A stretch of 64,000 bases of DNA from Bacteroidales bacterium UBA3843 (lineage in GTDB: Bacteria > Bacteroidota > Bacteroidia > Bacteroidales > Paludibacteraceae). Shown here piece after piece: positions 35,197 to 47,118 of the stretch (the stretch's first letter is position 1; each line of letters begins with the position of its first letter). The stretch is from positions 65,154-129,153 of the forward strand of contig DGHR01000003.1 in NCBI GenBank assembly GCA_002392745.1, written 5' to 3'. The notes under the pieces are model-generated. The model ran no database searches. It was not told the origin of the DNA and saw only the letters and a program-made list of their open reading frames with translations. The translations under genes were made by a program, and so were the position numbers.

Positions 35197-36450
35197 ATGT
35201 ACAATATGTCCAGGGAAAACGCAAACTGGGTAGAAAAACTCCGTATATTCTATACTGAGTACCGTTCGGAATTCATCTTTGGAGCTCTATTAACCGGCGC
35301 GGTAGTACTAAGTTACGCCTTATCCCCATTGATTCCGGAAAAAATATTCCGTAGGTATCTCTCTCCCGCTATGAACTGCGCGATATTTGTATCGTGTGCG
35401 TTAGGCGCTTGGTTATTATTCCGTCATAATTCAGGCATGCGCATACGCCTGATGTCTGCAGTAACAATGGTTGTATGGGCTGTATTAACCTTCATCGCCA
35501 TACTGTTGAAAGCAACCATGTACAACAACTCTTTGGATGCTGCAACAGGACTGTTGAGCATGGATGGATGGGAATATGTACTGGGCAATATATTTGGATG
35601 GCTGCTACTCATATATCCGACAGAGCTGTTGCGGCCGGGATGGCTGAATTTCAAACGGTCTGTTCTCCAACTTCTTCCTGTACTTATAGTCGGGATGTTG
35701 GATGGGTTGCTGGATACAGACCTGAGATGGCTGCTGGCGGCTTATCCTTTTGTACTATTGGCATATATTGGCTCGAATATCCGGGCATATCGCAACTATT
35801 GCGAGGAGAACTACTCATCCATGGAGGATATTGATGCACAATGGATAGTGCGCTATCTGATTATGATAATTATCTTGGGTGCGTCATTCTGTTTTCTTTC
35901 GATAGCGCATTTCCCTACGCGTATTTTCACGCAGCAATGGTTGTTATTCTTTATTATTACCTACAGCAACGAGCAGATACTGTTTCGTCCGGACCCATGG
36001 AGAGATGTGCAAAAGTACGATGCGCAATGGGAACAAGAAAATCTTACATCGAACGAAACGGAACAGCCGCTAATGGTTCAACAGCCGGACGATGCTGCAT
36101 CTATCATCGGTCAGTCGGAAAGCGTACAACTGTTAGAGCAGTGGATGGAAACGGAGAAGCCTTATCTCAACAAGGACTTCCGCTTAACGGATATGATGAA
36201 GATTTTACCTATGAACCGCACCTACCTCTCTCAACTCATCAATAACGAATTCGGATGTAATTTCTACCAATACGTGACAACATATCGTATCAAGGAGGCA
36301 AAGCGTTTGATGCGCGCCAATCCTACTGCGAAGATGCAGCAGATTGCCGAGCAGAGCGGCTTCTCATCCACAACAGTCTTCGGACGCGTCTTTGCCCGTG
36401 AAACAGGAATGACACCCAGTGAGTGGTGTGCACAATTCGACAATACGTAA
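35197..36450 (+). CDS. membrane-embedded AraC-family transcriptional regulator
   Basis: Seven or eight hydrophobic segments in the first ~270 aa, then a C-terminal AraC HTH pair (YLSQLINNEFGCNFYQYVTTYRIKEAKRLM ... IAEQSGFSSTTVFGRVFARETGMTPSEW). The start is taken at the ATG at 35197; the alternative is the ATG at 35206. Confidence 0.8.
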   Translation: MYNMSRENANWVEKLRIFYTEYRSEFIFGALLTGAVVLSYALSPLIPEKIFRRYLSPAMNCAIFVSCALGAWLLFRHNSGMRIRLMSAVTMVVWAVLTFIAILLKATMYNNSLDAATGLLSMDGWEYVLGNIFGWLLLIYPTELLRPGWLNFKRSVLQLLPVLIVGMLDGLLDTDLRWLLAAYPFVLLAYIGSNIRAYRNYCEENYSSMEDIDAQWIVRYLIMIIILGASFCFLSIAHFPTRIFTQQWLLFFIITYSNEQILFRPDPWRDVQKYDAQWEQENLTSNETEQPLMVQQPDDAASIIGQSESVQLLEQWMETEKPYLNKDFRLTDMMKILPMNRTYLSQLINNEFGCNFYQYVTTYRIKEAKRLMRANPTAKMQQIAEQSGFSSTTVFGRVFARETGMTPSEWCAQFDNT

Positions 36451-36491
36451 AAAATAACAATTTTTTCTCGACTTTAAAACAATAAGTGAAC

Positions 36492-36520
36492 AGGGTACTT
36501 GTACAAGTGCTCTCTTTTTT
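36492..36520 (+). terminator. rho-independent terminator after the AraC gene
   Basis: AGGGUACUU-GUAC-AAGUGCUCU hairpin (9 bp including G-U pairs) followed by CTTTTTT. Confidence 0.6.
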
Positions 36521-36521
36521 G

Positions 36522-36529
36522 TATCTTTG
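36522..36529 (+). promoter_or_regulatory. candidate -7 box (TAtcTTTG) for the giant gene
   Basis: tatctttg lies 33 nt upstream of the ATG at 36562, immediately after the upstream terminator. Confidence 0.45.
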
Positions 36530-46617: not shown

Positions 46618-46623
46618 TTGCAT

Positions 46624-47079
46624 ATGCAAATACGGTATTATTTATATAAATTTCTGTTGATGGCATGGCTGCTGATGCCAATAGCCGGCGCCAATGCCAG
46701 CAATGCCAATGACCGCACATCGGCGTATGCATCGTGGGGCTACAAGCCCTTGTATAGTACGGCTACGGCGAAACCCCAAGGGCGTGTTTACCAACTGAGC
46801 GGCAGTGTCCCGACATATCATTTCCGCTCTACCTCTCCGTATTCCTATGTGCCCGGTCAAACCACAACCCAGAGCTCTGTTCCGAGCGTCCTTCCTTCCC
46901 GTCCGCGAAAAGTAGGGGAGGGGGGCTCCGAATGGAACTGGGGCGACCCGGGGGAAGAGGACCCGATAGGCGTTTTGCCGGACCCTCAACCGGTTGGCGA
47001 ACCGCTCGTCCTGCTCCTCATGGCGGCGCTCTATCTCCTTTGCGCACGCATGTATGGCAAGCGAAAACAGCGTCTTTGA
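46624..47079 (+). CDS. hypothetical 151-aa protein: signal peptide, Ser/Thr/Pro/Tyr-rich middle, PEP-CTERM-like C-terminal anchor
   Basis: The ATG lies 6 nt after the giant-gene stop. N-terminus MQIRYYLYKFLLMAWLLMPIAGANA. C-terminus PVGEP-LVLLLMAALYLLCARMY-GKRKQRL (motif, TM helix, basic cluster). A strong terminator follows. Confidence 0.65.
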   Translation: MQIRYYLYKFLLMAWLLMPIAGANASNANDRTSAYASWGYKPLYSTATAKPQGRVYQLSGSVPTYHFRSTSPYSYVPGQTTTQSSVPSVLPSRPRKVGEGGSEWNWGDPGEEDPIGVLPDPQPVGEPLVLLLMAALYLLCARMYGKRKQRL

Positions 47080-47088
47080 TTTCCCCAA

Positions 47089-47118
47089 GCGCGGTCATTT
47101 CCTGACCGCGCTTTTCTT
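47089..47118 (+). terminator. rho-independent terminator closing the giant-gene unit
   Basis: GCGCGGTCA-tttcc-TGACCGCGC hairpin followed by TTTTCTTT. Confidence 0.75.

Follow-up and report, generated by a model that had tools for sequence, protein, structure and literature searches.

This locus raises the question of what kind of protein a member of the Paludibacteraceae makes from a single gene of more than 10,000 nucleotides (nt), and by which route that protein reaches its place of action. The protein, called the giant here, has 3,351 amino acids (aa) and is encoded in a stretch of 64,000 nt from Bacteroidales bacterium UBA3843 (contig DGHR01000003.1, positions 65,154 to 129,153 of the forward strand); this whole stretch is referred to as the window. 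On balance, the evidence leans towards a surface or secreted protein with an ancestry among type IX secretion system (T9SS) cargo, which would use a short C-terminal tail as its sorting tag, serve as a scaffold or adhesin, work with a dedicated partner and be activated by an AraC-type regulator. The locus is not categorically new. It had been described in a first-pass annotation as an isolated system, a description that did not hold, since the cassette belongs to a large superfamily, of which it makes up one subfamily. The superfamily is of the T9SS-cargo type; the subfamily is new and unstudied, and its unusual features are the tail and an obligate partner, neither of which has an annotation model. 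No description of the giant family was found in the literature. The cassette comprises three genes, given here in window coordinates:

35197-36450, forward strand: regulator gene, 417 aa from an ATG start; the open frame reaches back to a TTG at 35155.
36562-46617, forward strand: giant gene, 3,351 aa in a single open reading frame (ORF).
46624-47079, forward strand: small partner gene, 151 aa from an ATG start, 6 nt past the giant stop codon.

The wider relationships of the giant were established with a profile of aa 1169-2350, which was searched against 1.84 billion cluster representatives and matched 467 proteins at E <= 0.001, 112 of them at E <= 1e-30. Beyond the giant's own subfamily, the members of this superfamily are about 1,500-3,200 aa long; they have at least aa ~1980-2340 in common with the giant, and often much more. 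Their C-terminal regions follow one order, in which the last shared domain (...LYDALT....I.DG..L.IETP....RYYI..) is followed by a linker and then by either a T9SS C-terminal domain (CTD) or a tail of about 25 residues. By a crude pattern applied to 105 long members, the ending is T9SS type A-like in 95 (...V.VYD..GR......LP.GVYI......K..V.) and a short tail in 10.

In T9SS type A cargo, the CTD is cleaved by PorU and the cargo is attached to anionic lipopolysaccharide (A-LPS). The type A CTD is an immunoglobulin-like (Ig-like) 3+4 beta-sandwich of ~70-100 aa (PMC11285876). When eight CTD-type members of the superfamily were scanned, seven matched the type A model TIGR04183 and two passed its cut-off of 23 bits: P0272 scored 33.1 and P0236 25.8 bits, P0311 and P0264 fell just short at 22.6 and 22.4, and P0254, P0335 and P0239 reached 17.9, 16.9 and 14.1. 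The eighth, P0292, had no TIGR04183 match and only a weak type C match, while two short-tail members did not match TIGR04183 at all. One member of 2,242 aa is named 'T9SS type A sorting domain-containing protein [Paludibacteraceae bacterium]' by the NCBI pipeline. Judged by these endings, the superfamily is mostly predicted T9SS type A cargo. The idea that the giant is T9SS cargo, proposed in the first-pass annotation, thus gains indirect support, because distant homologues carry type A CTDs, although the giant itself has no recognisable CTD.

Both endings can occur side by side. In one relative (locus L048, positions 3914-24466), a tandem arrangement consists of a 2,728-aa paralogue with a CTD, a 144-aa ORF, an AraC gene, a tail-bearing giant of 3,419 aa and its small partner. 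The paralogue, just upstream of the giant, is a distant one, 26-28% identical to it across ~650-680 residues in the C-terminal region and also in core segments. With a score of 20.6 bits, its CTD falls short of the cut-off. The two endings therefore coexist in one genome.

The end of the giant itself has two parts:

46258-46461, forward strand: final globular domain (aa 3233-3300), ...LVLYDALTDSERSILDGICLTIETP...RYYIRRR, conserved throughout the superfamily.
46537-46614, forward strand: short tail QKILKNGHVLILRNGHTFTVFGQKIQ (aa 3326-3351), which follows an acidic linker and is a candidate tag for sorting or export.

The conserved short tail had been noticed before, and it is real. Its consensus over ~25 aa is K-x-[ILV]-x-[NDE]-G-x-[LIV]-x-I-x-[RK]-[ND]-G-x-x-Y-x-x-x-G-Q-K-[IV]; in aligned tails a Lys, an Ile and a Gly are invariant, and one Gly and a Tyr are near-invariant. 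A hidden Markov model (HMM) was built from the last 28 residues of giants only and searched against the 1,754 ORFs that reach 100 aa or more in 1.3 Mb of DNA. It matched 14 ORFs that are not giants (E 1e-8 to 1e-2), and each match lies no more than 12 residues from the C-terminus; a looser pattern added a few further ORFs. Where the N-termini of these tail-bearing proteins were inspected, they mostly start with a signal-peptide-like segment. Their domains are mutually unrelated and include a pectate lyase with Flg_new, GH53, an endonuclease/exonuclease/phosphatase fold, a BspA-type leucine-rich repeat (LRR) protein, FN3 with a sub-threshold MAM match, and a pullulanase X25 domain. One of the tail-bearing genes lies in the window:

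26790-29090, forward strand: M6 peptidase (immune-inhibitor-A-like), 766 aa, secreted, with Flg_new and a giant-type tail, RKILHEGRLYILFNGHMYNILGTKIK.

This gene stands between those of the V-type ATPase A (25019-26776) and B (29098-30426) subunits, and the same insertion is found in locus L065, which comes from an independent, 94%-identical assembly.

The tail did not match anything in Pfam, NCBIfam or the PDB sequences, a database search with the last 151 aa of the giant returned only fragments of the giant's own family, and no description of the tail was found in the literature. A low-confidence model of the giant tail has just two to three short strands. For comparison, the T9SS signal of HBP35 has been mapped to the last 22 residues of that protein, where a Lys of the final strand is conserved (PMC11285876). 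The tail is treated here as a shared C-terminal tag that replaces the CTD in position. That it is a truncated CTD is not claimed, as hhalign gave no significant similarity; for the same reason it is described as a positional substitute, without demonstrated homology.

The second unusual feature is the small partner. Its 151 residues begin with a signal peptide (aa 1-26) and finish with a transmembrane (TM) helix (nt 47002-47052) that is followed by the basic sequence YGKRKQRL, so that the signal segment and C-terminal anchor proposed for this ORF were both found. Between them lie the motif PTYHFRSTSPY (nt 46813-46845), PRK, an acidic stretch and PVGEP (nt 46990-47004). The same layout is present in both clades of the giant family (see below): signal peptide, SASWGYQP, PTYxFRSTSxY, PRR/PRK, acidic stretch, P-[VI]-G-[ED]-P, helix and basic end. 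An HMM of the small protein matched 56 of 1,924 ORFs at E <= 0.01, beside a giant wherever the position was tabulated or inspected, and it matched directly past the giant in 46 of the 48 loci with downstream DNA. The two exceptions are a read-through plus a fragment, and both were recovered by tblastn.

The partner also accompanies three distant subfamilies of the superfamily, CTD-bearing members included. It is encoded by a 150-aa gene past the giant gene in a 2,657-aa subfamily (E 5e-12), by a 131-aa gene before a 2,242-aa subfamily (4-nt overlap, E 2.5e-5) and by a 162-aa gene before a 2,166-aa gut subfamily (4-nt overlap, E 2-4e-4). A small-partner neighbour was not found for a 1,621-aa short-tail subfamily. 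The small protein is regarded as a dedicated partner because it is strictly co-inherited across four subfamilies.

The giant is strongly conserved. There are 360 relatives in the database, and the best 120 of these 360 are covered over their full length at 59-94% identity, nearly all being 3,300-3,400 aa long. With the more distant clade included, identities among the more than 100 full-length relatives range from 48 to 94%. Conservation is even over all 3,351 residues and insertions or deletions are few. When one genome per species was scanned, 56 giant loci were found, every one in metagenome-assembled genomes (MAGs) of rumen Bacteroidales/Paludibacteraceae. The family falls into two paralog clades; several MAGs contain both paralogues, which are ~52% identical, and there are up to two per genome. 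Among the 42 loci that span the whole gene, the giant is one intact ORF in 37. The independent assembly L065 has the same gene order and an intact giant of 3,357 aa.

In the remaining five full-span loci (L002, L012, L037, L041 and L047), the giant frame is split into at least two ORFs; these may be MAG sequence errors or real decay. The AraC gene of L065 (L065:8726-9885) is called as two pieces of 121 and 247 aa, which may reflect a frameshift or pseudogene or an assembly error. In locus L052 (79-9543), a 3,154-aa ORF lies 452 nt upstream of the giant and has neither BLAST similarity to the giant family nor a match to a CTD model.

The regulator gene is a less constant companion. Among the 46 loci with upstream DNA, 24 have an AraC homologue (40-63% identity) at most 700 nt upstream of the giant, and this is more frequent in the window's clade (20 of 29) than in the sister clade (4 of 17). 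Placement is atypical in three cases: downstream in one locus, as two copies in one and 8 kb off in one. The three genes had been proposed as a conserved unit; the pairing of giant and small ORF stands, as the two are always together, but the AraC gene is not obligate and is upstream in about half of the loci.

What the giant does has to be read from its architecture. It begins with a Sec-type signal peptide (aa 1-29, nt 36562-36648) with a hydrophobic core at aa 14-32, which is its sole hydrophobic segment; by eye, the cleavage site lies after ...YGA and before VYDF. A lipobox Cys was not found after the signal segment, and a lipoprotein was rejected. It is predicted to be an exported protein of the cell envelope or surface. 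The features that follow the signal peptide are:

38194-38403, forward strand: single, borderline Flg_new match (Listeria-Bacteroides repeat, PF09479; aa 545-614), from Pfam.
38989-39861, forward strand: internal duplication, copy 1 (aa ~810-1100), from reciprocal profile matches.
40066-41445, forward strand: run of beta-sandwich (Ig-like) domains (aa 1169-1628), from AlphaFold; holds duplication copy 2 and the BACON-like stretch.
42493-43575, forward strand: superfamily core (aa ~1978-2338), profile positions ~810-1170, matched by most distant members.

Searches of Pfam and NCBIfam with the whole giant and with ten overlapping 420-aa segments gave only the borderline Flg_new match and weak noise, and profiles of five segments compared with all PDB sequences gave nothing usable. 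The giant accordingly matches no characterised adhesin or enzyme family in Pfam, NCBIfam or PDB profiles, as the first-pass annotation had supposed. The Flg_new and BACON-like stretches that it had named proved weak: Flg_new scores 27.4 bits on the segment and 23.0 on the whole protein (cut-off 27) and is marked by precomputed Pfam in about half of the giant's relatives, while the BACON match (PF13004, aa ~1567-1611) is well under threshold at 16.3 bits (cut-off 25, E 0.0095). Within the core, a MAM/CBM-like jelly-roll (CBM, carbohydrate-binding module) occupies aa ~2085-2235 and ends in GNDFIIDDMCIF, which is at aa 2219-2230; a jelly-roll-like segment had been noted before. The core has dense invariant W/C/H/D/E/Y columns.

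The statement that the giant is not made of tandem Ig-like repeats held in part. Profile self-comparison detected a single old duplication (aa ~810-1100 against ~1317-1560, reciprocal E 1.6e-11 to 2.5e-7) and no other repeat, but AlphaFold places a run of beta-sandwiches at aa 1169-1628. For structure prediction, aa 1169-2350 and 2351-3351 were modelled with AlphaFold2 from alignments of 16-17 sequences. The mean predicted local distance difference test (pLDDT) scores were 50.5 and 47.1, respectively, with ~60% of modelled residues below 50, and aa 1169-1628 is the only long stretch modelled mostly at a block-mean pLDDT of 50-90. With the model of aa 1169-2350, Foldseek gave generic matches at low TM-scores to cadherins, Sap S-layer domains, pilins and CBM22/CBM16/EclA, the matched part being unspecified; the model of aa 2351-3351 had no match.

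The regulator and the DNA between it and the giant gene suggest how expression might be controlled. The regulator has ~8 hydrophobic or TM segments (aa 23-263, nt 35263-35985) and, at aa 335-410 (nt 36199-36426), a DNA-binding region that matches HTH_18 at 69.9 bits (cut-off 33.6, E 2e-19) and HTH_AraC at 32.5 bits (cut-off 26.6), so both halves of the proposed membrane AraC regulator are present. The elements in question are:

35128-35135, forward strand: TATTTTTG, second candidate -7 sequence match before the regulator gene.
35178-35185, forward strand: TAATTTTG, candidate Bacteroidetes -7 box for the regulator gene, from a sequence match.
36440-36454, forward strand: ACAATACGTAAAAAA, element related to the conserved box, overlapping the regulator stop codon.
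36462-36483, forward strand: TTTTTCTCGACTTTAAAACAAT, conserved box and candidate AraC operator, from comparison by eye.
36492-36513, T-run to 36520, forward strand: hairpin/T-run past the regulator gene, from the window scan.
36499-36501, forward strand: invariant TTG in the hairpin loop, 20 nt before the -7 box.
36522-36529, forward strand: TATCTTTG, the TAnnTTTG -7 box of the giant gene, found in all related spacers.

In total, 24 related AraC-giant spacers were compared, and they can be aligned without gaps around four elements, which follow in the order TTTTTCTCGACTTTAAAACAAT box, hairpin with TTG in its loop, T-run and TAnnTTTGC. The TTG and TAnnTTTGC are present in 24 of 24 spacers, exactly 20 nt apart. 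By eye, a hairpin is at the matching place in all 24, and the box or close variants of it in about three quarters. RNAalifold did not find a stem in a common register among the spacer hairpins, and covariation is therefore not claimed. Bacteroides promoters consist of TTTG, 19-21 nt, and then TAnnTTTG; by this layout, the TTG and TAnnTTTG of the giant gene are taken to be a -33/-7 pair. The regulator's terminator hairpin would then wrap the -33 element, with the loop TTG doubling as the -33 of the predicted giant promoter, and the TTTTTCTCGACTTTAAAACAAT box sits where an activator would be expected to bind. In some relatives (the L031, L009 and L048 spacers), CAATTCGTAAAAA occurs in two to six direct copies, either in place of the box or together with it; the single copy in the window is ACAATACGTAAAAAA at 36440-36454. 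These copies may be regulator binding sites.

Taken together, these elements can be assembled into a mechanism. The 8-TM AraC protein would sense a membrane or envelope signal and activate the giant promoter from the box upstream of -33/-7. The small protein would be delivered to the periplasm by its own signal peptide and stay anchored through its C-terminal helix, the basic end lying on the cytoplasmic side; it might act as a tether, chaperone or assembly factor for the giant. The tail would direct the giant out of the periplasm, either across the outer membrane or onto it, and the type IX system or one of its branches is the most likely route. Once there, the giant would serve as a scaffold or adhesin at the surface by means of its beta-sandwich arrays and MAM/CBM-like jelly-roll, and might for instance bind plant polymers or other cells in the rumen. 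A bolder proposal, advanced tentatively as possible rather than probable, is that the tail is an undescribed class of C-terminal sorting signal in rumen and gut Bacteroidales, evolutionarily interchangeable with the type A CTD and carried by enzymes as well as by the giant, and that giant and partner form a two-protein surface apparatus switched on by the AraC sensor.

Several observations count against a T9SS-derived surface scaffold with the tail as its tag. The giant does not match TIGR04183, NF033708 or PF18962 at E <= 10, whether searched whole, in 420-aa segments or with its last 200-236 aa, and there are no T9SS component genes within the 64-kb window; those of the machinery are PorK/L/M/N, Sov, PorU and PorV. 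When hhalign was used to compare the tail with CTDs of the family, taken whole and as their last 30 aa, the probabilities were 9.9% and 1.8%. The models are poor, and both the most conserved core (aa ~1630-2135) and the C-terminal third are without a confident fold. The upstream-encoded partners of two distant subfamilies have no obvious N-terminal signal peptide, so the predicted topology of the partner is a tentative one. An AraC gene was not found upstream in 22 of 46 loci, so that its regulation of the giant is not universal. Finally, invariant C/H/D/E/W residues are dense in the parts without a confident fold and could mark an enzyme and not a scaffold.

This last point leads to a different view of the giant, as a very large secreted enzyme, acting for example on polysaccharides or other glycans or on proteins, whose middle (aa ~1630-2340) is catalytic and whose beta-rich parts are accessory binding modules. 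The middle is the most conserved part of the protein and is common to the whole superfamily, the giant-type tail is also found on real hydrolases, and the length and sequence of the giant are far more constrained than those of typical repeat adhesins. However, no segment has a Pfam, NCBIfam or PDB-sequence profile match and no catalytic motif can be named; Foldseek gave only Ig-like and CBM-like folds, with the core itself outside the modelled part. An enzyme is considered unlikely, and a scaffold or adhesin is preferred. The tail could also have a meaning other than export. The giant might be periplasmic, or held by its inner-membrane-anchored partner so as to span the periplasm, or the tail might be a tag for retention or for packaging into outer-membrane vesicles after another route has been taken. 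No type of CTD is detectably similar to the tail, the C-terminal helix of the partner resembles a stop-transfer sequence with a basic end, and two kinds of ending within one genome may differ in meaning. Yet the tail occurs on a pectate lyase, a GH53 protein, an M6 peptidase and BspA-type LRR proteins, all of which are expected to act extracellularly; it occupies the exact place of the CTD within the superfamily; and the partner is also found beside CTD-bearing members. Such alternative roles are judged quite improbable, and sorting to the surface remains the favoured role of the tail.

A small ORF directly after a giant secreted protein also recalls a polymorphic toxin with its immunity protein, or else part of a prophage or other mobile element, for instance something like a tail fibre. 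Cassette neighbourhoods do differ between MAGs and a low-GC restriction-modification unit adjoins the cassette, but conservation does not drop in the C-terminal region of the giant, which lacks a variable toxin tip, and the small protein is a low-complexity, exported and membrane-anchored protein, not a cytoplasmic immunity fold. Integrase, transposase and phage genes were not found flanking the cassette; its flanks are housekeeping genes whose order is kept in the 94%-identical relative. With a conserved C-terminus, an anchored small protein and no mobile-element flanks, both ideas were rejected as very improbable indeed. A type B CTD or SprB-like system was likewise rejected, as there is no TIGR04131 match and the adjacent gene encodes a 151-aa single-TM protein.

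Comparison with known systems places the cassette more precisely. T9SS type A cargo (TIGR04183/PF18962, Por_Secre_tail), which includes large surface proteins and carbohydrate-active enzymes of Porphyromonas, Tannerella and uncultured rumen Bacteroidales, resembles the giant in its occurrence in Bacteroidales, its Sec signal and its large, beta-rich multidomain build, and distant homologues of the giant have CTDs that reach or approach the curated cut-off. In contrast, the ~3,350-aa subfamily lacks the ~70-100-aa Ig-like CTD and has the ~25-aa tail instead. With the SprB-type gliding adhesins, which have a type B CTD and a PorP/SprF-like partner, the cassette shares the arrangement of a giant surface-protein gene next to a dedicated partner gene. 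However, the giant has neither a TIGR04131 match nor long arrays of near-identical repeats, and its partner, a low-complexity protein of 130-160 aa, has a single TM helix at the C-terminus in place of an outer-membrane beta-barrel.

The partner itself is reminiscent of PEP-CTERM and other CTERM proteins, the substrates of exosortase, archaeosortase and rhombosortase, in its Pro/Gly/acidic motif (P-V/I-G-E/D-P), hydrophobic helix and basic cluster, whereas there is one dedicated partner per giant here and many CTERM substrates per genome. C-terminal pieces of partner homologues gave scattered, sub-threshold matches to unrelated CTERM models, one of them at 15.9 bits against a cut-off of 16 (TIGR02595), which are attributed to the generic layout of motif, helix and basic end; the window's own small protein did not match any CTERM model, and a sortase-like gene was not noticed, with no search of the genome aimed at one. 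The regulator is similar to AraC/XylS one-component regulators in its C-terminal HTH_18/HTH_AraC domain and in its position directly upstream of a presumed target with a conserved box. It differs in that its N-terminus is an integral membrane region of ~8 helices without a family match, as opposed to a soluble cupin or ligand-binding domain.

Paludibacteraceae are abundant uncultured fibre degraders of the rumen. Carbohydrate-active enzymes (CAZymes) of uncultured rumen Bacteroidales are exported through the T9SS (PMC5831590). If it is true that the tag serves secreted enzymes and giants, predictions of the secretome and of CAZyme export that use TIGR04183 only will undercount the cargo in Paludibacteraceae. 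The tail would also offer a compact handle on the minimal C-terminal signal that the export machinery needs, and it is the most testable and most general lead of the locus. The giant family is among the larger conserved proteins of the lineage with no function assigned, and is a candidate for contact between cell and substrate or between cells in the rumen.

The cassette has hairpin/T-run sites at both ends, in addition to the one past the regulator gene:

35095-35118, T-run to 35124, forward strand: left-boundary hairpin/T-run, 10-bp stem with 5 GC pairs and a TTTTTTTGCAT tail; ends the fabG-like gene upstream.
47087-47113, T-run to 47118, forward strand: right-boundary hairpin/T-run, strong, 11 bp with 7 GC.

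The layout given in the first-pass annotation, with three ORFs, three hairpin/T-run sites, a TAnnTTTG box and a 6-nt gap, was recovered in full. The window scan returned 19 hairpin/T-run sites and shuffled sequences 12.6 +/- 4.1, so that the scan by itself is weak evidence. Upstream of the cassette are a V-type ATPase operon, fabD and fabG, and downstream of it a type III restriction-modification pair and Lon. Apart from the cassette genes, no neighbour in the window is kept beside the giant across the 56 species-level loci, and the upstream neighbours are retained only in the 94%-identical relative.

Other parts of the window gave a few minor observations. The cassette is followed by a non-coding stretch of 460 nt (47119-47576) with four further hairpin/T-run sites, one of them bidirectional at 47240-47259. 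The restriction-modification pair then occupies 47577-51207 (methylase 47577-49184, res helicase 49186-51207); its GC content of 0.43-0.44, compared with ~0.49 for the window, suggests an acquired island. On the reverse strand, a bacterial RNase P class A RNA (4463-4836, 122 bits) adjoins a tRNA gene (4871-4941). A 951-aa ORF at 18890-21745 on the forward strand combines an Asp-Al_Ex permease region, TrkA_C, PD40/BNR beta-propeller repeats and an OmpA-like domain, and is either a fusion of an unusual kind or a pair of genes read as a single one.

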